A stretch of DNA of 64,000 nt from Gaiellaceae bacterium. GTDB lineage: Bacteria; Actinomycetota; Thermoleophilia; Gaiellales; Gaiellaceae. Shown piece after piece: positions 18,329-31,681 of the stretch. The stretch's first letter is position 1, and each line of letters opens with the position of its first letter. Made by a program: the position numbers and the translations under genes. The stretch is taken from positions 8,694 to 72,693 of the forward strand of contig DATIDT010000029.1 in assembly GCA_035456125.1 (NCBI GenBank), given 5' to 3'. The notes under the pieces were generated by a model that was given only the letters and a program-made list of their open reading frames with translations, searched no databases and had not been told where the DNA came from.

Positions 18329-18781
18329 CTAATCGCCCGCAGGAACGGGTGCTCGCACCGGCTGCACGACCAGCACGGGACGCCCGGCATGCGCGAGGAC
18401 CTCCCGCGACGTGCTGCCCAGGAAGACACCTTTGAGCCGACCCAGCCCACGCGAGCCGACGACGATCAGGTCCGCTCCGAGCTCGGACGCGAGACGAATG
18501 ATCTGCTTCGGCGGGTAGCCGACGAGCAGCTCGGACGTCGCCTCGACGCCGTGTGCGGCTGCGAGAGCGAGCGCATCCTGGAGAGCCGGATCGTCCTCCG
18601 CGCGCGGCAGGCGCTGCGGCCGCGCAGGCGCGCCTCCGTTCCCGTGCTCCGCGAAGTCGAGGATCGAGACGACGTGCACGACGACGATGCCGGCACCCTC
18701 GTCGGCCGCCAGCTCGACGCCGGCCTCTACCGCGGCCCGACCGGTGGGCGAGCCGTCGGTTGCGATCACGATCTTCCGCAT
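18329..18781 (-). CDS. Universal stress protein
   Basis: GGAAGGAGGTG RBS then MRKIVIATDGSPTG...VVGSRGLGRLKGVFLGSTS...HAGRPVLVV. Confidence 0.85.
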   Translation of the reverse strand: MRKIVIATDGSPTGRAAVEAGVELAADEGAGIVVVHVVSILDFAEHGNGGAPARPQRLPRAEDDPALQDALALAAAHGVEATSELLVGYPPKQIIRLASELGADLIVVGSRGLGRLKGVFLGSTSREVLAHAGRPVLVVQPVRAPVPAGD

Positions 18782-18844
18782 TTCACACCTCCTTCCCGCC
18801 CACTGTGTGACGCCGGAGCCGCACCCGCATCGGCAGAGACCACG

Positions 18845-18861
18845 AAGTACGATCAGTACTT
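18845..18861. promoter_or_regulatory. AT-rich inverted repeat AAGTAC-N5-GTACTT in a divergent promoter region
   Basis: Read directly. It is the most AT-rich patch of the 157-bp spacer between USP (minus) and the SQR-like gene (plus). Confidence 0.3.
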
Positions 18862-18880
18862 GTTCCGATGGCCGGGGCGT

Positions 18881-18930
18881 GGTGTGATGACACCATGAGG
18901 TCGGCTGCGGGAGGTGCAGGGACACGAGTC
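18881..18930. promoter_or_regulatory. Palindrome GGTGTGATGACACC (18881-18894) and a DosR-box-like core GGGAC-ACGA-GTCAC (18917-18930)
   Basis: Read directly. The second matches GGGAC-N4-GTCCC at 9 of 10 core positions. Confidence 0.25.
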
Positions 18931-18938
18931 ACGCCGCG

Positions 18939-20129
18939 TTGAAGGTCGTCGCCGCAGGAGCCGGCGTCGCGGGCCTCGAGCTCGCGCTGGCGCTTCGAGC
19001 GCTTGCTGAAGACGCCGTCACGGTCGAGCTCGTCGCCCCCGAGACCGAGTTCGTCTATCGGCCCCTGGCGGTGGCGGAGCCGTTCCGCACGGACGACGTC
19101 CGGCGGTTCGGGCTCGAGCGGCTCGTCGAGGCAGCGGGCGCTTCACTCCGACCGGGCCGCGTGACGCGTGTCGAACCCGAGCGGAAGCAGGCCGTTGTGG
19201 ACGACGGCGAGGCCGTCGACTACGACGCATTCGTCCTCGCCGTCGGGGCAGGGACGCACGACGCGATCGACGGCGCGCTCACGTTCCGCGGCCCGCAAGA
19301 CGACCCTGCGCTCGCAGGGCTGCTAGAGCGCGCGACCGACGGCGAGCTGCGGCGGATCGCGTTCGTCGTGCCTGCGGGCATCAGCTGGCCACTGCCGATG
19401 TACGAGCTCGCCCTCCAGACGGGCACGTACCTGAGCGACCACGTCACGCGCGGTGTCGAGCTCGTGCTAGTAACGGCGGAGGAGCATCCGCTCGGCGTGT
19501 TCGGCCGCGAGGCGAGCAGCGCGATCGCTGAGCTCCTCGAGATCCGCGGCATCGAGGTCGAGCCGGGGCTCGCGGCGATGGCCTGGCACGACGGCGTCCT
19601 CGCCGTGGCCGGCGACGTCTCGATCGAGGCGGACGCCGTCGTCGCGCTCCCGCAGCTCGTCGGCCCGGCGCTGCCGCGCCTGCCTCACGACCGACTCGGC
19701 TTCGTGCCGACAGACCTCGAAGGACGAGTTACCGGCTTGACGGATGTCTACGCCGCCGGCGACGCGACACAGTTCCGGCCGAAGCAGGGCGGCCTCGCGA
19801 CGCAGCAGGCGGACGCCGTCGCCGCCGCGATCGCCCGCGATGCGGGCGCCGATGTCGCGCCGATGCCGTTCCGGCCGGTCCTGCGCGGCGTCCTCCTCAC
19901 GGGCTTCGTCCCGCGGTTTCTGCGTGCGGACATTCGCGAGGGGACGTCCGTCGTGGACACCGAGGCGTTGTGGTGGCCGCCGGCCAAGATCGTCGGCCAC
20001 TATCTGGCGCCGTTCCTGGCGGCGGAGCTCGGTCTGAGCTCGGAGTTGCCGGAGAGCGCCCGCCGAGGAGCCGTCGAGATCGAGGTCGAGCTCGACCCGC
20101 ACAGCGCCTCCGCCCACACCGGCGTCTGA
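18939..20129 (+). CDS. FAD-dependent pyridine-nucleotide-disulfide oxidoreductase (SQR/NDH-2-like)
   Basis: TTG start. KVVAAGAGVAGLE Rossmann motif at the N-terminus, later VYAAGDAT. Confidence 0.7.
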   Translation: MKVVAAGAGVAGLELALALRALAEDAVTVELVAPETEFVYRPLAVAEPFRTDDVRRFGLERLVEAAGASLRPGRVTRVEPERKQAVVDDGEAVDYDAFVLAVGAGTHDAIDGALTFRGPQDDPALAGLLERATDGELRRIAFVVPAGISWPLPMYELALQTGTYLSDHVTRGVELVLVTAEEHPLGVFGREASSAIAELLEIRGIEVEPGLAAMAWHDGVLAVAGDVSIEADAVVALPQLVGPALPRLPHDRLGFVPTDLEGRVTGLTDVYAAGDATQFRPKQGGLATQQADAVAAAIARDAGADVAPMPFRPVLRGVLLTGFVPRFLRADIREGTSVVDTEALWWPPAKIVGHYLAPFLAAELGLSSELPESARRGAVEIEVELDPHSASAHTGV

Positions 20130-20907: not shown

Positions 20908-21092
20908 CTTGAATCCTCCTTGGGTGGTGGTTCCGGGATTGCTCCGCAGTGAAGCCGCCGGCACGCGCGCCGCCATCCGCGAGCAGCCGCCGATCTGCTG
21001 GGGCTGAGCCGCGGAGTCGGTGCGGCTTTTCCGCAACGCCGTGCCGGGCAGAGACCGATGGCGGGCGGCCCGGGCGCGAGGAAGCTGAACGC

Positions 21093-22694
21093 ATGGGCGT
21101 CGCAACGGAGACCGCAATCCGGCCGATCGCGGCCGTCGCCGGCGACCTCGGCCTGGACGACGAGCACGTCGAGCCGCACGGCCGCTACACAGCGAAGATC
21201 AATCTCGCGGCGCTCGGCGCCGCACCGCGCGACGGCAAGCTCGTCTGCGTCACCGCGGTCACCCCGACGAAGGCCGGCGAGGGCAAGACGACCACTGCCA
21301 TCTCCCTGGCCGACGCGCTCGGACTGGGCGGCGACAACCCCGTCCTGTGCCTCCGGGAGCCGTCCCTCGGCCCGGTGTTCGGGCTGAAGGGCGGTGGGAC
21401 GGGCGGCGGCCGCGCGCAGGTCTTCCCGCCGGAGCTCGTGAACCTCCACTTCACCGGCGACATTCACGCCATCGGCGCGGCCAACAACCTGCTGGCCGCG
21501 CTCGTCGAAGCGCATCTGCTGCACGGCAACGAGCTGCGCATCGATCCTCTGTCGATCAGCTGGCGGCGCTGCCTCGACATGGACGACCGCGCCCTGCGTC
21601 GCATCGTCGTCGGGCTCGGAGGCCGTGCGAACGGAGCGCCGCGCGAGACGGGCTTCGACATCACCGCCGCCTCCGAGGTGATGGCGATCGTCGCAGTGTC
21701 GCAAGACTACGACGACCTCCGTGCGCGGCTCGGCGCAATCACCGTCGCGCGCGACGCCGCAGGCGAGCGGGTGACCGCGGAGCAGCTGCGCGCCGCCGGT
21801 GCGATGGCGGCGCTTCTGGTCGACGCCCTCAAGCCGAATCTCATCCAGACGCTCGAGGGCGTGCCGGCACTCGTCCACTGCGGACCGTTCGCGAACATCG
21901 CCCACGGCAACAACTCGATCGTCGCCGACATGCTCGGGCTCGAGCTCGGCGACTACGTCGTCACCGAGAGCGGCTTCGGCGCGGAGATGGGCTTCGAAAA
22001 GTTCGTCGACATCGTTTGCGGCCTCGGAGACATGCGCCCGGCGGCGGTCGTCGTCGTCGCGACGACGCAGGCGCTCGAGCATCACGGTGCCGACGGCGCG
22101 AACCTGGAAGCGAACCTGCGCATCGTCCGCGAGGTCGGGATCGAGCCGGTCGTGGCGATCAACCGCTTCCCGACTGACACGCGAAGCAAGACGAACGCGC
22201 TCAGGAAGGTGGCCCTCGAGCTCGGCGCGTACGCGGCCGAGGTCAACGACGGCTACGAGCACGGCGGCGCGGGCGCGGCGGCGCTGGCCGAGGCGGTGAA
22301 GGCGGCCGCCGCGCGGCCCGCGGAGGTCCGCCCGCTCTACGCCGGCGGCGACCCGTTGCGGCGCAAGCTCGAGGCGGTCGCACGGAAGGCCTACGGTGCC
22401 GCCGACGTCGAGCTGGCCCCGGCGGCCGTGAAGCAGCTGAGACAGCTCGAGGCGGACGGCCTCGACCACCTGCCGGTGTGCATCGCGAAAACGCATCTGT
22501 CGCTCTCGCACGACCCGAACGCCCTCGGCGCGCCGCGTGGTTTCACACTCCCCGTCAGAGAGCTCAGGCCGTATACGGGCGCCGGCTGGATCGTCGCGCT
22601 GTGCGGCGACATGCAGACGATGCCGGGCCTGCCCTCGAAGGCCGCTGCCTTCGAGATCGACGTCGACGGTGAGACGATTCGCGGCTTGCGTTGA
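21093..22694 (+). CDS. fhs: Formate--tetrahydrofolate ligase
   Basis: GAGGAAG RBS. VTAVTPTKAGEGKTTT P-loop, ...HCGPFANIAHGNNS..., ...ICIAKT.. pattern. Confidence 0.9.
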   Translation: MGVATETAIRPIAAVAGDLGLDDEHVEPHGRYTAKINLAALGAAPRDGKLVCVTAVTPTKAGEGKTTTAISLADALGLGGDNPVLCLREPSLGPVFGLKGGGTGGGRAQVFPPELVNLHFTGDIHAIGAANNLLAALVEAHLLHGNELRIDPLSISWRRCLDMDDRALRRIVVGLGGRANGAPRETGFDITAASEVMAIVAVSQDYDDLRARLGAITVARDAAGERVTAEQLRAAGAMAALLVDALKPNLIQTLEGVPALVHCGPFANIAHGNNSIVADMLGLELGDYVVTESGFGAEMGFEKFVDIVCGLGDMRPAAVVVVATTQALEHHGADGANLEANLRIVREVGIEPVVAINRFPTDTRSKTNALRKVALELGAYAAEVNDGYEHGGAGAAALAEAVKAAAARPAEVRPLYAGGDPLRRKLEAVARKAYGAADVELAPAAVKQLRQLEADGLDHLPVCIAKTHLSLSHDPNALGAPRGFTLPVRELRPYTGAGWIVALCGDMQTMPGLPSKAAAFEIDVDGETIRGLR

Positions 22695-23857
22695 GCGCCG
22701 CCAGCGCAAGCGGTAACGTCGAGCTGCTGAGTGAGCGCCCGGACTCCGCGCTTGTCATCCCGCTCGACGGGCTGGACGAGCTTGTCACGGTTCTGCGAGA
22801 GCGCGGCTACCGCGTGATCGGGCCGAAGGCCCGCGACGGCGCGATCGTCTACGACGACATCGCCGGCGCGGCCGACCTCCCGGCCGGCTGGGGCGACGAG
22901 CAGGACGCCGGCTCGTACCGGCTCGTCCGCCGCGCCGACGACGCGCGCTTCGGGTACGCCGTCGGTCCGCATTCGTGGAAGCAGTTCCTCCAGCCGCCGC
23001 ACGTCCGCCTCTGGCAGGCGGAGCACGACAGCGCGCTCGAGCAGGAACCGGAGCCCGACCGGCCGCTGGCGTTCGTCGGCGTGCGCGGGTGCGACCGGCA
23101 CGCGATCGCGATCCAGGATCGCGTACTGCTCGGAGGGCGCTACGCCGACGACGACTACGCCGCGCGCCGCGACGGCGCGTTCGTCGTCGCCGTCGACTGC
23201 GCGGAGCCCGCCGGCACGTGCTTCTGCGTCTCCATGGACACCGGCCCCGGCGTCGAGGACGGTTTCGACCTCGCGCTGACGGAGCTGCTGGACGGCGAGC
23301 ACCGCTTCCTCGTCCGCGTCGGCAGCGAACGGGGCGCCGACGTGCTGTCGGAGGTGTCCTCCCGCGCTGCCGAGCCCGACGAGCTCTCCGCGCGCGCGGG
23401 GATCGTCGAGCAGGCAGCCCAGCGGATGGGGCGCGAGCTGGACACGACAGGGCTGCGCGAGCTGCTGCAGGACGCGCTGGAGCATCCGCGCTGGGACGAG
23501 GTCGCCGAGCGCTGCCTCACGTGCGGGAACTGCACGATGGTCTGCCCCACCTGCTTCTGCACGACGGTCGAGGACGTGACGGATCTCGGCGGCGAGCACG
23601 CGGAGCGCTGGCGTTCGTGGGACACGTGCTTCTCGCTCGACCACTCGTACATGCACGGCGGCAGCGTGCGCGCGACCGGTCGCTCGCGTTACCGGCAGTG
23701 GCTGACGCACAAGCTCGGCACCTGGTGGGACCAGTTCGGGACGAGCGGCTGCGTCGGCTGCGGCCGGTGCATCGCGTGGTGCCCGGTCGGCATCGACATC
23801 ACGGAGGAGGCGGCGGCGCTGCGGGCGTCGCCGGCAGGCGATGGCGCGCGGGCTTGA
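22691..23857 (+). CDS. hyhB: Hydrogenase beta subunit, AsrA/HydB-like 2x[4Fe-4S] protein
   Basis: TTG start overlapping the fhs stop (TTGA). [16 protein letters not shown] and [12 protein letters not shown] motifs. Confidence 0.8.
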
Positions 23858-24305
23858 CGCGGTCGTCCTCGACGCGCCGGTCTTCTCCGGTATCGGCGAC
23901 GAGAATGCGGCGCAGCTCGCGGGTTGTGCCCGCACGACCGGCTGGGCCGACGGCGAGACGCTCTTCCGCGAGGGCGATTCCGCCGACACGTTCTACGTCG
24001 TCAGGCGCGGCCGCGTCGCGCTCGAGCTGTTCGTCCCGAACCGCGGGCCGCTGACGATCGAGACGATCGAGCCGGGCGAGGTGGTCGGCTGGTCGTGGTT
24101 GTTCCCGCCGTACCGCTGGCACTTCGACGGCCGCGCCGTCGGCGGGGTGCGAGCGATCCAGGTCGACGGCGCCTGCCTTCGGGACAAGTGCGACGCCGAC
24201 CCGGTGCTCGGCTACGAGCTGATGCGGCGCTTCTCCCAGGTGATGCTCGAACGGCTCCAGGCGACGCGCCTGCGGCTCGCCGACGTCTACGCGGTTCCGC
24301 GATGA
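23841..24305 (+). CDS. Stand-alone cyclic-nucleotide-binding (cNMP) domain protein, no HTH
   Basis: 154 aa. ...[22 protein letters not shown]...GEVVGWSWL... beta-roll pattern. Overlaps hyhB by 17 nt and is ATGA-coupled to hyhG. Confidence 0.75.
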
Positions 24306-25117
24306 GCGTCATGACGCCGAGCACCTATCTGGTCAGCGGCCGGCGGCGCGAGACGGCGGACACGTTCACGCTCGAGCTCGAGCCGCGGAACGGCGGCATC
24401 CCCGCGCCGCAGCCGGGTCAGTTCACGATGCTGTACGCGTGGGGCGTCGGCGAGGTGCCGATCTCCGTGAGTGCGGTCGAGAACGACGGGAGGCTCGTCC
24501 AGACGATTCGCGACGTCGGGGCCGTCACGCACACGCTCTGCGCGCTCGAGCAGGGAACGACGCTCGGAGTGCGCGGGCCGCTCGGCCGCGGCTGGCCGGT
24601 CGAGGAGCTCGCAGGCGCGGACGTCGTGGTCGTCGCGGGCGGGCTCGGTCTCGCGCCGCTGCGGCCGGCGGTGCACGCGCTGATCACGAAGCGCGACCTG
24701 TTCGAGCGGCTCGTGCTGCTGTACGGAGCGCGCACGCCGGGCGACCTGCTCTTCCTCGATGAGCTGGAGCGCTGGGCGGAGGGCGGCTTCGACGTGCAGC
24801 TGACCGTCGACGCAGCCGATGCGGACTGGGACGGCCCCGTGGGCGTGGTCGGCAAGCTCGTGGCCCGCGGCGAGTTCGACCCGGCATCCGCCGCCGCGTT
24901 GATGTGCGGGCCGGAGGTGATGATGCGGTTCACCGCAGCGGCGCTCGCGGAGCGCGGGGTCGCTCCGGAGCGGACGTACGTCTCGCTCGAGCGGTCGATG
25001 AAATGTGGCGTCGGGCAGTGCGGCCATTGCCAGATCGGCCCGACGCTCGTGTGTGTCGACGGGCCCGTGTACTCGTGGGCAGAGATGGCTCGATGGCTGT
25101 CGGTGCGGGAGCTCTAG
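24302..25117 (+). CDS. hyhG: Hydrogenase gamma subunit, FAD/NAD(P)-binding with C-terminal [2Fe-2S] (AsrB/PyrK-like)
   Basis: GQFTMLY...PISVS (FAD), [12 protein letters not shown] (NAD(P)), [14 protein letters not shown] cluster motif. Confidence 0.85.
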
Positions 25118-25872
25118 TGGGCGCGAAGCCGACGCTCGCCGTCTGGAAGTTCACGTCGTGCGACGGCTGCCAGCTCAGCCTGCTCGACCTCGAGGACGAG
25201 CTGCTCGCGATCGCCGGGGAGCTCGAGATCGCCCAGTTTCTCGAAGCGTCGAGCGCGACGGTCGCAGGGCCGTACGACGTGTCGCTCGTCGAGGGCTCGA
25301 TCACGACGCCCCACGACCGCGAGCGGATCCGCGAGATCCGCGACGCGTCCGGGTTCCTGATCTCGATCGGCGCGTGCGCCACTTCCGGCGGGATCCAGGC
25401 GCTCCGCAACTTCGCCGACGTCGAAGGCTTTCTCAGCGCTGTGTATGCAACGCCCGAGTACGTCGCGACGCTCGACACGTCGACGCCGATCTCCGATCAC
25501 GTCGCCGTCGACCTCGAGCTCCAGGGTTGCCCGATCAACAAGCGCCAGCTGCTCGAGGTGATCACCGCCTTCCTGCGCGGGCGACGGCCCAACGTCCCGG
25601 CGTACTCGGTGTGCGTCGAGTGCAAGCGCCGCGGGACGCCGTGCGTGATGGTGGCGCGGGGCGTCGCGTGCCTCGGGCCCGTCACGAACGCCGGCTGCGG
25701 CGCGCTCTGCCCGGCGTATGCCCGCGGCTGCTACGGCTGCTTCGGCCCGAAGGAGCAACCCAATCTCGCCTCCCTGACGGCGTGGTGGGTCGACGAGCTC
25801 GCCGTCGAGCCGCCGGCGGTCGATCGTGCGCTCCAGACGTTCAACGTCGAGAAGTTCAGGCGCACGGCATGA
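25117..25872 (+). CDS. hyhS: NiFe hydrogenase small (delta) subunit, group 3 type
   Basis: [45 protein letters not shown] Cys motifs. GTG at 25117 overlaps the hyhG stop; an ATG at 25093 is an alternative. Confidence 0.8.
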
Positions 25873-27164
25873 CCACCACGCGCCGGACGATCCAGACGGA
25901 CTATCTCGCGCGGGTCGAGGGCGAGGGCGCGATGACCGTCCGCCTGGTCGACGGCCAGGTGGAGGACGTCGAGCTCCGCATCTTCGAGCCGCCGAGGTTC
26001 TTCGAGGCGATGCTCCGCGGACGCTCGTTCCGCGAGGCTCCGGACATCACCGCGCGCATCTGCGGGATCTGCCCCGTCGCGTACCAGACGAGCGCCGTCA
26101 ACGCGATGGAGGACGTCTGCGGCGTGACGGTGCCCGAGCCGATCCGGATGCTGCGGCGGCTCCTCTACTGCGGCGAGTGGATCGAGAGCCACGCGCTGCA
26201 CGTCTACATGCTCCACGCACCCGACTTCCTGGGCTACGACGGCGCGGTGCAGATGGCACAGGAACATCCGCGCGAGGTGGAGCGCGGCCTCGCGCTGAAG
26301 AAAACGGGCAACGAGCTGATGGCTCTGATCGGAGGACGCGAGATCCATCCGATCAACGTCCGCGTCGGGGGCTTCTACCGCGCGCCGACGCAAGCCGAGC
26401 TCCGCACGCTCGTCGATCCGCTCGAGCGCGCGCGAGCGGCGGCGCTCGAGACCGTGCGCTGGACCGCGTCGTTCGGGTTCCCCGAGCGTGAGGTGCCCTG
26501 CGAGCTGGTCGCGCTCTCGGACCCGCGGGCCTACGCGATCGAGAACGGCCGCATCGTCTCCGACCGCGGCCTCGGAATCGGGCCCGGCGAGTACGACGGG
26601 CAGTTCGTCGAGGAGCACGTCGAGCGCTCGAACGCGCTCCATTCGCGGCGCACCGACGGGACGACGTACCTCTGCGGCCCGCTCGCGCGCTACACGCTCG
26701 GCTCCGACCGGCTGTCGCCGGCGGCGCGCGAGGCGGCACGCGCTGTCGGCCTCGGCGACGACTGCCGTGACGCCTTCCGCAGCATCGTCGTCCGCAGCGT
26801 CGAGCTCGTCTACGCGTGCGACGAAGCGCTGAGCCTGATCGCCGCCTACGAGGAGCCGGAGCAGCCCGCAGTCGACGTGGAGCCGGTGGCCGGCACCGGC
26901 TACGGCGTCAGCGAGGCACCGCGCGGGCTCCTGTACCACCGGTACCGCCTCGACGCCGACGGGACGATCCGCGATGCAAAGATCGTGCCGCCGACGTCGC
27001 AGAACCAGCTCGCGATCGAGGACGACCTGCGCGGCGTCGTCTCGAGCTACGCGGAGCTGCCGGACGACGACCTGCGGGACCTCTGCGAGCAGACGATCCG
27101 GAACTACGACCCGTGCATCTCGTGCGCGACGCACTTCCTCACGCTCGAGGTGGAGCGGCGGTGA
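25869..27164 (+). CDS. hyhL: NiFe hydrogenase large (alpha) subunit
   Basis: ATGA coupling. N-terminal [10 protein letters not shown] and C-terminal DPCISCATH Ni-Fe ligand motifs. Confidence 0.9.
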
Positions 27165-27625
27165 GCATCGTCGTGATCGGCGTAGGCAACCGCCTGCGCG
27201 GCGACGATGCGGCCGGCCCGGCGGTCGCCGACCGCGTCCGCGCACAGGCGCCCGGCAACGTCGACGTGCGCATCTGCGAGCAGGAGCCGTCGCGGCTGCT
27301 CGATGCGCTCGCGGGCGCCGACGTCGCCTTCGTCGTCGACGCCGTCTCGACCGGTGCCGCCCCGGGCACGCTCCACCGGTTCGACGCGAGCACCGCGCCG
27401 GTCCCGAGTCGCGAGCTGCGCTCGTCCACGCATGCGCTCGGCGTCGGGGAGTCCCTCGAGCTGGCACGGGCGCTCGGGCGCCTGCCCCGGCGAACCGTCG
27501 TCTTCGGCATCGAAGGCCGTGCCTTCCTCGCCGGCGGCGAGCTGAGCCGGGCAGTAGAAGAGAGCGTGGAGCGCGCCGCCGCGTCTGTCCTCGAGGAGGT
27601 GGCGCAGTGCACGAACGAGCCGTGA
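27161..27625 (+). CDS. Hydrogenase maturation endopeptidase (HycI/HyaD family)
   Basis: GTGA coupling. [19 protein letters not shown]..., ...VDAV...GTLHRF..., STHALG motif. Confidence 0.8.
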
Positions 27626-27876
27626 TGCGGCAGCTGGTGCGACGGGTGGTCGAAGTTGCGGGCGAGGAGAACGCCGACGCGGTGACAGCGATCCGGGTGC
27701 GCCTCGGAGCGCTGTCGCACTTCACGCCGGAGCATTTTCGCGAGCACTTCCTCGACGCAGCGCGCGGCACACCGGCGGAAGGCGCGGCCGTCGATGCCGT
27801 CGTCTCCACGGACCGAACTGCCGCGCACGCCGACGGCGTGGTGCTCGAGAACGTCGAACTGGAGGTGTCGCCCTGA
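27607..27876 (+). CDS. hypA: HypA-like nickel metallochaperone lacking the Zn(Cys)4 domain
   Basis: GTG start gives (M)HE N-terminus ([11 protein letters not shown]...). 89 aa with no CxxC pairs anywhere. Overlaps the protease gene by 19 nt. Confidence 0.6.
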   Translation: MHERAVMRQLVRRVVEVAGEENADAVTAIRVRLGALSHFTPEHFREHFLDAARGTPAEGAAVDAVVSTDRTAAHADGVVLENVELEVSP

Positions 27877-28091
27877 TGTGCATCGGATCGATCCAGGTGC
27901 TGGAGGACGCGTGGGAGGAGGGCGGCGCGCGCGTCGGTCGACTCGCAAACGGCACCCTCGTCACGCTCGCGTTCGTGCCTGCTGCAGAGCCCGGCGTGCA
28001 CGTCATCGTGCATCTGGGCATTCCCGTCGAGGTGCTCTCGGCCGAAGAGGCCGAGACCGCGCCCGACCTCCATGCAGGAGCGCAGCTGTGA
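27876..28091 (+). CDS. hypC: HypC/HupF hydrogenase assembly chaperone
   Basis: MCIGSIQVLE... N-terminal Cys2 motif, ...GVHVIVHLGIPVEVLSAEEA.... Confidence 0.8.
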   Translation: MCIGSIQVLEDAWEEGGARVGRLANGTLVTLAFVPAAEPGVHVIVHLGIPVEVLSAEEAETAPDLHAGAQL

Positions 28092-28984
28092 GCCGCCGCT
28101 CGACGGGAATCGCCATCGCGTTCGTGACCGCGTGCATCAGCGGCGTATCGATCTGGGTCAACTCCCACGCGGTCGCACGATTCGACGACGCCACCGTGTA
28201 TACGACGGCGAAGAACGCCGTCGCCGGCCTGCTCCTGCTCGCGCTCGCGCTTCCACTCCTCCGTCGCGCCGGTAACGGTGCTGCAGCCGTCCCCTCACGC
28301 CTCAGGCCGGCGCTGCTTGCCGTCGCCGTCGTCGGCGGCAGCGTGCCGTTCGTCCTCTTCTTCGAGGGGCTCGCCCGTGCCGAGGCGACGCAGGCGGCAT
28401 TCATCCAGAAGACACTCGTCGTCTGGGTGGCGTTGCTGGCGATCCCGCTGCGGCGCGAGCGGATCGGCATCGCCCACGTCGCCGCGATCGTGTTCGTGAT
28501 CGCCGGACAGGCCGTGCTGGCGGGCAGCGCGGGCACGGTCGTCTTCGGGACGGGCGAGGCCATGATCCTCGCGGCGACACTGCTCTGGGCAGTCGAGGTC
28601 ATGCTGGCGAAGCGACTGCTCGACGACGTCGCCGTACGCGTGTTGGCCGTGGCGCGGATGGTCCTGGGAACGGTCCTGCTGCTCGCGTGGCTCGTGGTGT
28701 CGGGGCGCGCGGACGACTTCGTCCGGCTCCCGGCGTCGCAATGGAGCTGGGCGCTGCTGACGGGCGTCCTGCTCGGCGCTTATGTCGCGACGTGGTACGC
28801 GGCGCTGGCGCGGGCTCAGTGCGTGGACGTGACCGCGGTGCTCGTCTTCGGGGCGGTCGTCACAGCGTTTCTCGCCCAGGCCGCCGACGGCGTGGCCTTC
28901 GACGCGCTCGGCGTCGTGCTCGTCACCGTCGGCGTCGCGCTCGCAGCCGTCGCCGGGAGCCGTCCGAGCTTGCGAACGGCATGA
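28088..28984 (+). CDS. EamA/DMT-family transporter (10 TM)
   Basis: GTGA coupling to hypC. Two EamA-like halves with about 10 hydrophobic helices. Confidence 0.8.
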   Translation: MSRRSTGIAIAFVTACISGVSIWVNSHAVARFDDATVYTTAKNAVAGLLLLALALPLLRRAGNGAAAVPSRLRPALLAVAVVGGSVPFVLFFEGLARAEATQAAFIQKTLVVWVALLAIPLRRERIGIAHVAAIVFVIAGQAVLAGSAGTVVFGTGEAMILAATLLWAVEVMLAKRLLDDVAVRVLAVARMVLGTVLLLAWLVVSGRADDFVRLPASQWSWALLTGVLLGAYVATWYAALARAQCVDVTAVLVFGAVVTAFLAQAADGVAFDALGVVLVTVGVALAAVAGSRPSLRTA

Positions 28985-29733
28985 CGCCCGGGCCGCTGCT
29001 CTTCGCGCGCTACGCGTACCCGCCGAACGCGCTCGGCCTTTGCGGCGCAGAGGAGTCCCGCACCCTGCTCGAGTACGGAACCGCCGGCGCTTCCGACGGC
29101 GGCCTCGCCGAGTTGGCGCAGGCCTTCGAGGGCGCCTGGCCGTACCTCACGCTCATCGCCGGCGCGAACGGCATCCACGACCCGCTCGACGCGCGCGTCG
29201 TCGAGGCGTACTGGGTCGGCAACGACCTGCTCGACCGCGTCTCCGGGCAGACGCTCGCGCGCCACATCGAGGACCGCTTCAGAGGGCGCGTAGGGCGCAC
29301 CTGGGAGCGCATCGTCGAGGCGGTGGCGGCAGGGGCGGTGCCGCACCACACGTTCCACGTCTTCGCCGTGTACCCGTGGCTCGGGCTGCTCCGGACCGGC
29401 GAAGCCGCGCAACCGCTGCTCGTGCTCGACCGTTGCCGCATCACGCCGGCCCTCGTCCAGAGCGTGGAGGGCGAAACCGTGAAGGTTCTGGCCCCGGCGC
29501 TCGACTGGGACGGCAGCCGGCTCTCACTCGGCTGGTGGAAGCAGCGGACCGCACGCTTCAGCGAAGACGGGCTCGGGTTCGTCACGCCGGCGCCCGGCGA
29601 CTGGGTATCGCTCCACTGGGATTTCGTCTGCGACCGCCTGACGCTCGCGCAGGCCACGAGCCTCTACCGGGCGACCGAGCGGGCGCTCGTGGCCGTGCAC
29701 GGCTCTGCCGGGACGAAGCTCGTGCTCGGTTAG
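28981..29733 (+). CDS. DUF6390-like protein with a C-terminal HypC-like domain
   Basis: ATGA coupling. N-terminus FARYAYPPNALGLCGAEE. C-terminus ...DRCRITPALVQSVEGETVKV...GDWVSLHWDFVCDRLTLAQA resembles HypC (MCxGxPxxV...GxWVLVHxGFA). Confidence 0.65.
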   Translation: MTPGPLLFARYAYPPNALGLCGAEESRTLLEYGTAGASDGGLAELAQAFEGAWPYLTLIAGANGIHDPLDARVVEAYWVGNDLLDRVSGQTLARHIEDRFRGRVGRTWERIVEAVAAGAVPHHTFHVFAVYPWLGLLRTGEAAQPLLVLDRCRITPALVQSVEGETVKVLAPALDWDGSRLSLGWWKQRTARFSEDGLGFVTPAPGDWVSLHWDFVCDRLTLAQATSLYRATERALVAVHGSAGTKLVLG

Positions 29734-29802: not shown

Positions 29803-30222
29803 GTGCTCGTGAGCCTGACCGCGTCTGCCCATTCGATTGCCGGAACGTCGAGGCAGAGCGTGCTGATCGACGGCAGGCACCACCTGCTCACGGACGAGCC
29901 GGAGCATCTGGGCGGCACCGACCTGGGCCCGTCGCCGCACGAGCTACTGCCGGCCGCACTCGCGGCGTGCATCTCGCTCACGCTCGTGACGTACGCACGG
30001 ACGAAGAAATGGGACATCGGCGAGGTCACGGTCGACGTCGTGTACGACAGCAAGGCGGTGCCCCGCCGGTTCGACGTGGCGATCGACATCGAGCGGGACG
30101 TCGACGAAGCGCAGCTGGCGCGACTGGAGAAGGTGGCGGCGGCCTGCCCGTTGCGGCGCTCGCTCGAGACCGGCTTCGAGTTCCACGAGGTCGTCCGTCG
30201 CCGCGAGAGCATTGCGGCCTGA
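29803..30222 (+). CDS. OsmC/Ohr-family protein
   Basis: GTG start. ...GGTDLGPSPHELLPAALAACISLT...AACPLRRSL, two conserved Cys. Confidence 0.75.
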   Translation: MLVSLTASAHSIAGTSRQSVLIDGRHHLLTDEPEHLGGTDLGPSPHELLPAALAACISLTLVTYARTKKWDIGEVTVDVVYDSKAVPRRFDVAIDIERDVDEAQLARLEKVAAACPLRRSLETGFEFHEVVRRRESIAA

Positions 30223-30381
30223 GGCGGACATGCCGATCGACACCCGCGACCTGCGCGAGGCGAAGAGCTGCACTCGAAGCAGATCCGGATCCGCAGAAAC
30301 CCGCAGATCGTTCGCCGCCTCCCCCGATGTGGAACCGGAGCCGATGCGCGACGCTTCGTCTACCGAAACGGAGGTCCAGCG

Positions 30382-30891
30382 ATGAGCATCACCGAACGAC
30401 CACCGGCGAGCGCGCAGGCAGATGCGCTGCGCTCGGAGCACGAGCGCCTCGGCGAGCACGCAGAGGAGATTCGCGTCGCCGCGCTCGAGCTGCCCGTCCT
30501 GGCTCCGGAGGAGCGCCGCGTACTGGTCGATCGTATCGTCTCCTTCCTGAGCGGGCCTTTCGCGGCCTACGCCGAGAGCGAGGTGAGAGCCCTTTACCCG
30601 TATCTCGACCGCGTGCTGGACGATCCGCACGCCAGCGCGGGAATGCGCTACGACCTCGAGGCCGTCCGGCAGCTCACCGACCGCTTGCGTGAAGCCGACG
30701 TACGGAACACGCCGGGACTGCAGGAGCTCCTCTACGGGGTGCACGCGATCATCACGCTGCATCTCCGGAAGGAGGACGACCTGTACCTGCCGCGGCTGGC
30801 GCAGGAGCGGCCGGCACAGCTCGAGCACGTGCTGAGGGCGATGCGCGAGGTTCGGTTCGAGCACGACCATCCCGCGCGTGGCGACCTCTGA
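30382..30891 (+). CDS. Hemerythrin (HHE cation-binding)-like protein
   Basis: GGAGG RBS. ...LRSEHERLGEHAEEI... and ...HLRKEDDLYLP... His/Glu helices. Confidence 0.55.
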   Translation: MSITERPPASAQADALRSEHERLGEHAEEIRVAALELPVLAPEERRVLVDRIVSFLSGPFAAYAESEVRALYPYLDRVLDDPHASAGMRYDLEAVRQLTDRLREADVRNTPGLQELLYGVHAIITLHLRKEDDLYLPRLAQERPAQLEHVLRAMREVRFEHDHPARGDL

Positions 30892-30905
30892 AGGGAGGAG
30901 GAATC

Positions 30906-31070
30906 ATGCGCGACACACCTACGCACCCTCGTCGGCGAGTCGAGCACCTCATCGGGCGCGCGGATCGCCTCACGAGCTGGGCGCTCGCCCAGAGCTACCT
31001 GACAACACAGAAAGTCCCACCGAAACGACGGACACCGCCGTTCGTCGACGCTCGCGCACCGAGACGATGA
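30906..31070 (+). CDS. Unlisted 54-aa basic small ORF
   Basis: My translation reads MRDTPTHPRRRVEHLIGRADRLTSWALAQSYLTTQKVPPKRRTPPFVDARAPRR. GGGAGGAGG lies 5 nt before the ATG, and the stop overlaps the next gene start (ATGA). GC3 is only about 70%. Confidence 0.35.
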   Translation: MRDTPTHPRRRVEHLIGRADRLTSWALAQSYLTTQKVPPKRRTPPFVDARAPRR

Positions 31071-31681
31071 GAGCGCCGCCGGCTGCACCCGACCGGCGCC
31101 TGGTCGAGCTGCCGCCTGACGCACCCGTCTGGGAGCGCGTCTTCACCGTTGCGCCACTCGTGCTGATCGGGACGAAGGAGGGCGACGGGTACGACGTCGC
31201 CCCGAAGCATCTCGCGTCCCCATTCGGCTGGGAGAACTCGTTCGGCTTCGTCTGCACGCCGCGGCACGCGACGTACCGCAACGTGGTCGAGCACCGGGCA
31301 TTCACGGTGAGCTTCCCGCGCGCCGACCGCATCCTTCATGCGACGCTCGCCGCCGGCGGGAGACTGGACGACGGGTCGAAGCCGACGCTCGACGCGGTGC
31401 CGACGTTTCCGGCTCACCACATCGACGGTGTCTTCGTCGAAGGCTGTTACCTGTACCTCGAGTGCGAGCTCGACCGAGTCATCGGCGGGTTCGGCGACAA
31501 CGGTCTCATCGTCGGACGGATCGTCGCGAGCAGCGCATGCCAGGAGTTCGTGCGCCGCATCGATCAGGACGATGCCGACGTGCTCGAACGGCTGAATCCG
31601 ATCGTGTACGTCTCGCCCGGCCGATTCGGGATCGTGCGGGAGACGTATTCGTTCCCGTTCCCGATCGGCTTCAGCCGCTGA
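31067..31681 (+). CDS. Flavin reductase-like (FMN-binding split-barrel) protein
   Basis: Internal start MRAPPAAP.... ...VAPLVLIGTKEG.GYDVAPKH... pattern. Confidence 0.6.
   Translation: MRAPPAAPDRRLVELPPDAPVWERVFTVAPLVLIGTKEGDGYDVAPKHLASPFGWENSFGFVCTPRHATYRNVVEHRAFTVSFPRADRILHATLAAGGRLDDGSKPTLDAVPTFPAHHIDGVFVEGCYLYLECELDRVIGGFGDNGLIVGRIVASSACQEFVRRIDQDDADVLERLNPIVYVSPGRFGIVRETYSFPFPIGFSR

Follow-up and report, generated by a model that had tools for sequence, protein, structure and literature searches.

Why should an operon for an NAD(P)-linked [NiFe]-hydrogenase carry, between the genes of its two diaphorase subunits, a gene for a cyclic nucleotide-binding (CNB) domain protein that has no helix-turn-helix (HTH) DNA-binding domain? 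This question is raised by a stretch of 64,000 nucleotides, here called the window, from a Gaiellaceae bacterium (assembly GCA_035456125.1, contig DATIDT010000029.1, positions 8,694 to 72,693), in which such an open reading frame (ORF) lies within a group 3b hydrogenase operon; all coordinates below are those of the window. Bacterial group 3b enzymes have been named and modelled as four-subunit HyhBGSL complexes after their archaeal prototypes. Our analyses lead us to regard it as probable that the CNB protein is a non-catalytic fifth subunit of the bacterial HyhBGSL-type enzyme, with a regulatory or organising role like that of HoxI in the soluble hydrogenase of Cupriavidus necator, and we are considerably more confident of its being a stoichiometric subunit bound to the HyhG/HyhB module. 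The genes on which the argument rests are the following:

22691 to 23857, forward strand: hyhB, the Fe-S (beta) diaphorase subunit, AsrA/HydB-like (Pfam Fer4_22, 1.2e-32; NCBIfam sulfhyd_ShyB/HydB/AsrA, 1e-35 to 1e-47).
23841 to 24305, forward strand: the CNB-fold ORF, 154 aa with an ATG start and a TGA stop, an HTH-less cNMP-binding-like domain and the proposed fifth subunit.
24302 to 25117, forward strand: hyhG, the FAD/NAD(P)-binding [2Fe-2S] (gamma) diaphorase subunit, AsrB/HydG-like (Pfam NAD_binding_1 and DHODB_Fe-S_bind).
25093 to 25872, forward strand: hyhS, the small (delta) subunit, with 499 bits to a HyhS profile.
25869 to 27164, forward strand: hyhL, the [NiFe] large (alpha) subunit of group 3b type (Pfam NiFeSe_Hases; NCBIfam ShyA/HydA).
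27161 to 27625, forward strand: the hydrogenase maturation protease (Pfam HycI; TIGR00072, 7e-36).

The CNB ORF is a real gene. Its sole Pfam domain is cNMP_binding (PF00027; E=7.2e-12, 45.6 bits against a cut-off of 27.5 bits, residues 36-119), the Pfam scan found neither HTH_Crp nor any other DNA-binding family in it, and the protein ends at residue 154, right past the C-helix of the domain, in agreement with the initial annotation, which had described a 154-aa ORF made of a cNMP-binding domain alone. Its start lies inside hyhB, whose end it overlaps by 17 nt, and its TGA (24303-24305) shares an ATGA with the hyhG start codon at 24302; both junctions had been noted from the outset and are confirmed by the coordinates, a second in-frame ATG at 24311 being a possible alternative start of hyhG. 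The GC content at third codon positions is 0.92, which matches the neighbouring genes. More than 4600 homologues came from a search of 5.8 billion proteins, and almost all of the 120 that were listed are 153-160 aa long, with a few shorter; the nearest one (90% identity) spans 100% of the ORF, which supports its start codon. An exhaustive search of 1.84 billion cluster representatives yielded 6173 relatives at E<=1e-3 and 199 at E<=1e-30, those listed being mostly single-domain proteins of ~155 aa.

The surrounding genes, assigned by gene families, make up the set that is characteristic of group 3b: an AsrA-like beta subunit, an AsrB-like gamma subunit, a delta subunit, a [NiFe] alpha subunit and a maturation protease. 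HyhG matches the NCBIfam family of cytochrome-c3 hydrogenase gamma/AsrB subunits (1e-53 to 1e-55), the HyhS profile was built from annotated Burkholderia and Rhodococcus operons, and the best PDB match of the window's HyhL is the alpha subunit of Pyrococcus furiosus sulfhydrogenase I (SHI; E=1.4e-64). Operons of equal gene content have been placed in group 3b by HydDB (PMC11879354, PMC12319191), and the operon of the window is classed here by its gene content.

That this gene belongs with the hydrogenase is indicated by its distribution. Using four aligned HyhL sequences as the query against one genome from each GTDB species, we obtained at least 600 matching stretches and kept the best 80 loci, whose HyhL proteins are 59-81% identical to that of the window, the closest being from metagenome-assembled genomes (MAGs) of Gaiellaceae and Thermoleophilia. 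Upstream DNA could be read in 78 of these loci, the other two ending at contig ends, and six-frame translations were searched with profiles of HyhB, the CNB ORF, HyhG, HyhS and HyhL. As a result, the order HyhB-CNB-HyhG-HyhS-HyhL was found in all 78 loci, across about 14 phyla, with CNB matches of 178-250 bits, whereas unrelated CRP-like genes of these loci reached 37-39 bits. The taxa carrying the ORF comprise Actinomycetota, Acidobacteriota, Alpha-, Gamma- and Deltaproteobacteria, SAR324, Planctomycetota (Brocadia, Jettenia), Bacteroidota, Ignavibacteriota, Chloroflexota, Binatia, Sumerlaeota, Bipolaricaulia, Zixiibacteriota and Deinococcota. Identical order occurs on annotated plasmids of Burkholderia, Paraburkholderia, Pandoraea and Rhodococcus, the Rhodococcus copies of the CNB ORF scoring 150-162 bits on the model of the 3b family.

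The layout of the gene is preserved together with its position. The ORF is 150-160 aa long in every locus, its start overlaps the hyhB stop by 4, 14 or 17 nt in about three quarters of them, and its distance to hyhG is nearly always below 40 nt, usually +4 to +35, so that among the relatives a positive spacer is commoner than the overlap seen in the window. In the 69 complete loci, the mean pairwise identity is 0.52 for the CNB ORF, 0.55 for HyhG, 0.59 for HyhB, 0.65 for HyhL and 0.70 for HyhS, and the pairwise identities of the CNB ORF follow those of the four other proteins with correlation coefficients of r=0.53-0.67, where the accepted subunits reach r=0.60-0.76 among themselves. The CNB ORF thus diverges at a subunit-like rate, near those of HyhB and HyhG. 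The suspicion that such an ORF might be absent from or not conserved in orthologous operons is not borne out, with one Streptomyces lineage, described below, as the exception: the CNB subunit is characteristic of the bacterial 3b clade and nearly universal there, and it is not indispensable. A frameshifted C-terminus of HyhB, which the initial annotation had kept in view, was ruled out in turn, since the ORF has its own start in a different frame and since in the 78 loci, too, HyhB stops and the ORF stands in a frame of its own.

In several lineages the ORF is found not as a separate gene but joined to HyhG. CNB-HyhG fusions form at least 10 clusters at 90% identity, with proteins of 463-470 aa, and more divergent examples are P0292 (455 aa) and P0296 (491 aa); in these proteins the end of the C-helix runs into HyhG through a linker of ~30 residues. 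These fusions are not assembly errors. One of them (P0154) is identical in three samples; another (P0277) is present on 16 contigs of up to 846 kb, one of which comes from an NCBI Acidimicrobiales assembly, and its operon reads HyhB-[CNB-HyhG]-HyhS-HyhL-protease-HypC with no separate CNB gene; and P0292 has the same operon context on a 121-kb contig. In the same operon setting, a protein of 613 aa found on 12 contigs (P0282) has the arrangement CNB-CNB-HyhG, which is suggestive, being the look expected of a covalently linked CNB dimer. The fusions are the strongest available evidence in support of a CNB protein that would work physically attached to HyhG. Two further arrangements were seen: in an alphaproteobacterial MAG (L084, 3424-9278) CNB and hyhG are duplicated in tandem, giving HyhB-CNB-HyhG-CNB-HyhG-HyhS-HyhL, and an apparent HyhB-CNB fusion (P0212) was rejected as an artefact, as nearly every gene is in fragments on its sole contig (L089, ENA ERZ25039560 contig_11974), where the splitting of the hydrogenase and hyp genes suggests a noisy assembly with frameshifts.

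These observations bear directly on whether the protein is instead a free-standing regulator of hydrogenase expression acting in trans, perhaps through titration of a partner that binds DNA. That reading agrees with the database name of the homologues, 'Crp/Fnr family transcriptional regulator', with the Frankia report that calls the 3b CNB gene a small transcriptional regulator (PMC11879354) and with the existence of paralogues outside hydrogenase operons; yet a protein that ends at its C-helix with no DNA-binding domain, whose gene lies between those of two subunits, with overlaps of stop and start codons, and that is fused to HyhG in several lineages is most improbable in such a role. The view of the initial annotation that the ORF encodes a partner of the beta/gamma module rather than a transcription factor is therefore upheld by the gene order, the hyhB overlap, the fusions, the missing HTH and the subunit-like divergence. 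Elsewhere the gene has been listed in Rhodococcus equi (PMC13332983) and labelled 'HoxI' in a methanotroph (PMC12319191). Our survey of the literature and the PDB found no experimental work on the 3b CNB gene and no structural or biochemical study of a bacterial 3b enzyme.

If the protein is a subunit, it has to be asked what its domain can bind. An AlphaFold2 (AF2) model based on 64 homologues (predicted local distance difference test, pLDDT, 91.7; predicted template modelling score, pTM, 0.85) consists of a beta-roll, a short B helix (residues 110-119) and a 30-residue C helix (121-150), in which G124, Y125, R138, L139, D148 and Y150 are conserved. Two parts of the domain matter here:

24087 to 24137, forward strand: the remodelled phosphate-binding cassette, residues 83-99, with the pattern GWSWLxPPYRWxFDARA, the most strongly conserved segment.
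24201 to 24290, forward strand: the long C-terminal helix, residues 121-150, equivalent to the dimerisation C-helix of CRP and followed by no DNA-binding domain.

The beta-roll with helices A, B and C and the PF00027 match place the protein among the CNB domains. The top Foldseek matches in the PDB are the sensor domains of Mycobacterium tuberculosis CRP and Corynebacterium glutamicum GlxR (E about 5e-12, TM-score 0.72 over ~150 residues), and CNB domains of cGMP-dependent protein kinase (PKG) and cyclic nucleotide-gated (CNG) channels are matched as well. With the sensor domains of the CRP/FNR proteins (those of M. tuberculosis CRP, GlxR and Escherichia coli CRP) the ORF shares the fold, including the C-helix, and PF00027, but it has neither their winged-helix DNA-binding domain nor their cAMP-contacting Glu and Arg. 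By sequence, the top PDB matches (E about 1e-11) are 3mdp (Geobacter metallireducens Gmet_1532) and 2pqq (an N-terminal domain from Streptomyces coelicolor), stand-alone CNB structures of unknown function from structural genomics, with a hydrogenase link known for neither. The former gives the best target-normalised TM-score (0.85, root mean square deviation 2.5 A) and has the cassette length and a Pro-Tyr in common with the ORF, but it lacks the GWSW and Trp93 signature, and 2pqq keeps a canonical GE...PRT cassette.

The cassette was mapped by ungapped alignment to the canonical cassette of 2pqq (GELSLFDPGPRTA), to HoxI and to E. coli CRP, in which E72 contacts the ribose and R82 the phosphate. 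In the 81 operon members, the residue aligned with E72 (residue 84) is Trp in 64, Val in 12, Leu in 4 and Ala in 1, and is never acidic. The counterpart of R82 is absent, its position being deleted or occupied by Trp93 (83% conserved), with R92 (64%) as its neighbour; the equivalent of CRP S83 is His94, and the Ser/Thr position is mostly His. The canonical pattern Gly-Glu...Arg-[Ser/Thr]-Ala is thus not found in the family. Other positions of the cassette are nevertheless retained almost without exception (G83 100%, S85 96%, W86 98%, P90 99%, against 79% for W84), which indicates that the cassette has been remodelled and has not decayed. The replacement of the ribose-binding Glu by Trp, together with the lack of a phosphate-binding Arg, makes canonical binding of cAMP or cGMP appear unlikely.

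It is on this evidence that the allosteric control of the hydrogenase by cAMP or cGMP, which the initial annotation had suggested for a genuine cyclic-nucleotide receptor subunit, has to be judged. The significant Pfam match, the closeness of the fold to cAMP-bound CRP and GlxR, and the Arg (R92) that 64% of members have immediately ahead of the canonical Arg site speak for it; against these stand the substitution of the Glu by Trp in 79% of members and otherwise by Val, Leu or Ala, the deleted or Trp-occupied R82 site, the His at the Ser/Thr position and the poor conservation of R92 itself. We consider such a receptor very unlikely, and the comparison with CRP that had been proposed as a check shows that the cyclic-nucleotide contacts are lost rather than retained.

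A second conserved feature of the protein is a set of cysteines:

23925 to 23927, forward strand: the codon of Cys29, which is conserved in 96% of operon members and forms a co-varying pair with Cys112.
24174 to 24191, forward strand: Cys112 to Cys117 (CLRDKC), where helix B begins; in operon members C112 is conserved to 93% and C117 to 88%.

Of 121 diverse representatives, 57 have both Cys29 and Cys112, 39 have neither and 25 have only one of them. In the alignment with CRP, Cys112 corresponds to K101 and Cys29 to residue 17, two before the equivalent of H19. H19, H21, E96 and K101 of CRP form the activating region 2 (AR2) surface patch, and because Cys29 and Cys112 map next to it, the two cysteines are probably adjacent and exposed, away from the pocket. 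All three cysteines are absent from HoxI.

The same residues can be read in another way, with the protein as a pseudo-receptor: a ligand-less structural subunit that would dimerise or stabilise the complex via its C-helix while its Trp-filled pocket is closed. The bulky Trp at both polar ligand contacts and the long conserved C-helix fit this reading, and the CNB-CNB-HyhG fusion mimics the dimer that it calls for. The facts that the cassette is the most conserved segment and that the co-varying Cys pair is kept suggest more than a scaffold, although an interface would explain both equally well. On balance, a purely structural subunit seems to us rather unlikely.

The known system closest in kind is HoxI, and in this respect the statement of the initial annotation that no function is established for such a module needs correction. 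In the reports on the group 3d soluble hydrogenase of C. necator, the enzyme is HoxFUYHI2, with a HoxI homodimer on the diaphorase module, and HoxI is described as the site of NADPH activation (PMC3702609, PMC3189943); one of them also reports that HoxI readily dissociates from its enzyme (PMC3189943). HoxI (C. necator, or Ralstonia eutropha, H16; pHG1 locus PHG093; 167 aa) resembles the product of the CNB ORF: both are CNB proteins with no HTH, about 17-19 kDa in mass, and both are encoded among the structural genes of a cytoplasmic, NAD(P)-linked [NiFe]-hydrogenase. The differences are, however, considerable. The two proteins are 28% identical, and on the model of the 3b family HoxI scores 45 bits and E. 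coli CRP 37, compared with 178-250 bits for the 78 ORFs of the genome scan. The HoxI cassette has Gly-Glu and a His at the Arg site where the CNB ORF family has Gly-Trp and Trp; hoxI lies past the protease gene and the CNB ORF between the diaphorase genes; and their diaphorase partners are unrelated, HoxFU being of the Complex I NuoEFG type with FMN and HyhBG of the AsrAB type. Orthology with HoxI was therefore ruled out by the 28% identity and a score near that of CRP: HoxI is roughly no closer to the 3b CNB family than E. coli CRP is, and is an analogue, not an orthologue. Since the two are alike in fold only and their diaphorases are unrelated, the CNB fold appears to have been recruited twice independently.

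It is important to consider the observations that weigh against a fifth subunit. In Streptomyces sp. NBC_01450 (NZ_CP109481.1, L091 17333-19106), HyhB, HyhG, HyhS and HyhL are apparently intact and the site of the ORF is a gap of 62 nt; two sister strains likewise lack it, as judged from match coordinates, L091 alone having been read. The ORF is consequently dispensable at least in this one lineage. Archaeal group 3b enzymes are described as four-subunit. The sulfhydrogenases of P. furiosus (SHI) and Thermococcus kodakarensis (PDB 9nez, 9e15 and 5yxy) have the same alpha, beta, gamma and delta families and are the closest solved relatives of HyhL, and a sequence search of the PDB found no CNB-like chain among the matches to these entries. 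A few operon-embedded members lack the Cys pair. In the AF2 model of a natural CNB-HyhG fusion (pTM 0.62) the 26-residue linker (154-179) is disordered, and the model gives confidence neither in the arrangement of the domains nor in a CNB-HyhG interface. Finally, stand-alone CNB relatives exist away from hydrogenase genes (139-158 bits for the copies scored), and the fold subfamily is hence not exclusive to hydrogenases.

Of all 3b operons seen, that of L091 alone lacks the CNB ORF. Other Streptomyces carry the ORF within the operon, namely BHT-5-2, by profile search, and S. rimosus, by match coordinates. HyhB of NBC_01450 is 297 aa long against about 388, having ~90 fewer N-terminal residues, and the joint loss of the ORF and of this segment may mark the HyhB N-terminus as the docking site, as far as a single case allows. 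Elsewhere in this genome, at a distance of 18 kb and on the opposite strand, lies a stand-alone CNB paralogue (158 bits). For Mycobacterium smegmatis, no separate CNB gene is listed with Hyd3 (MSMEG_3931-3927; PMC2799521), and a protein search named only Nocardia relatives.

The paralogues away from hydrogenase genes stand in varied surroundings. The copy on p1 of Streptomyces fungicidicus (L004 6019-7157; 139 bits) adjoins a CBS-domain gene near narGHJI and lacks Cys29 and Cys112 while having Cys117, another stand-alone copy adjoins a VIT1 gene, and tandem proteins of two to five CNB domains exist, one of which (P0121) adjoins a resistance-nodulation-division (RND) efflux system. The CNB subfamily therefore probably has other partners too. 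Close paralogues outside hydrogenase operons (L004; P0121-P0125, P0127 and P0238) keep GWSW, and Cys29 and Cys112 are absent from them.

The exceptions also lend some weight to an assembly or maturation factor for HyhB/HyhG, which would insert a cofactor or Fe-S cluster or hold HyhG until it docks and would be absent from the mature enzyme. A factor that is co-translated with the diaphorase genes and has conserved Cys residues would suit this task, the Streptomyces operon and the archaeal enzymes do without the protein, and the ready dissociation described for HoxI points in the same direction. Stable fusions to HyhG, including the tandem CNB form, imply instead a permanent 1:1 or 2:1 presence, and we know of no chaperone role for the CNB fold. 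An assembly factor is accordingly an unlikely explanation in our estimation, though one to be taken more seriously than a cyclic-nucleotide receptor or a regulator in trans.

If the CNB protein is a fifth subunit, as we favour, translational coupling would keep its synthesis in pace with that of HyhB and HyhG, and it would bind to the diaphorase module, contacting HyhG most directly, at its N-terminal side. It would probably dimerise through its C helix, as CRP and HoxI do, which the tandem CNB-CNB-HyhG form supports. By analogy with HoxI, it could work on the NAD(P)H-handling side of the enzyme and adjust how the enzyme is activated or how electrons flow through it, responding not to a cyclic nucleotide but most plausibly to the pyridine-nucleotide or thiol redox state, perceived via the Trp-lined pocket and/or Cys29 and Cys112; alternatively, the subunit may merely organise the complex. 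A more specific proposal is offered tentatively, as we find it fairly doubtful in its full form: the subunit would sense redox state or pyridine nucleotides and thereby control, at the flavin site of HyhG, the flow of electrons or the reactivation of the enzyme, and CNB domains would have been recruited on two independent occasions as allosteric modules of NAD(P)-linked hydrogenases, pointing to a general role of HTH-less CNB proteins in redox enzymes other than cyclic-nucleotide binding.

Several neighbouring genes of the window were also noted. Upstream, on the forward strand, lies a gene for formate-tetrahydrofolate ligase (20949-22694, probable start 21093; Pfam FTHFS, 9e-211), whose TGA overlaps the TTG start of hyhB as though it were co-transcribed with the hydrogenase; such a gene occurs near the 3b operon in only one of the 80 loci (L011), and downstream there, so this linkage is specific to the genome of the window. 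Downstream, also on the forward strand, the protease gene is followed by a HypA-like gene (27625-27876, 83 aa), which matches positions 2-64 of the 112 of the HypA profile and seems to lack the C-terminal (zinc-site) half, and by HypC (27876-28091, 71 aa), whose start overlaps the HypA stop codon by one base. A gene for a DUF6390 protein (28981-29733, forward strand; Pfam 1e-88) stands just 3' of the hyp genes and an EamA transporter gene. DUF6390 genes lie beside the 3b operon in 11 related actinobacterial loci and in the lineage of the CNB-CNB-HyhG fusion (L009-L017, L054, L055 and L100-L102), and the protein could be an accessory of these 3b hydrogenases. Farther out, the flanks (18329-20129 and 29803-31681) encode a universal stress protein (USP; reverse strand) and pyridine-nucleotide-disulfide oxidoreductase, OsmC-like, hemerythrin-domain and flavin reductase-like proteins; the 3b operons of Burkholderia and Rhodococcus (L002, L003 and L005) are likewise flanked by USP and CBS genes. 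These stress and redox flanks are reminiscent of hypoxia and dormancy islands.

Group 3b hydrogenases are among the most widespread hydrogenases of soil and sediment bacteria, and they are thought to vent or capture reducing power in hypoxia, as Hyd3 does in M. smegmatis. The family described here is best regarded as a second case, after HoxI and apparently independent of it, of a CNB-fold protein serving NAD(P)-linked [NiFe]-hydrogenases as an accessory subunit. If this holds, thousands of entries named 'Crp/Fnr family transcriptional regulator' at this position are misnamed, and expressing or purifying a bacterial 3b enzyme while omitting its CNB subunit, or stripping it as high salt does HoxI, may alter activation. 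The subunit would also offer a concrete molecular handle on how cells switch their 3b enzymes on and off. The apparent double recruitment, with HoxI in group 3d and the CNB family in group 3b, bears on the role of HTH-less CNB proteins in general.

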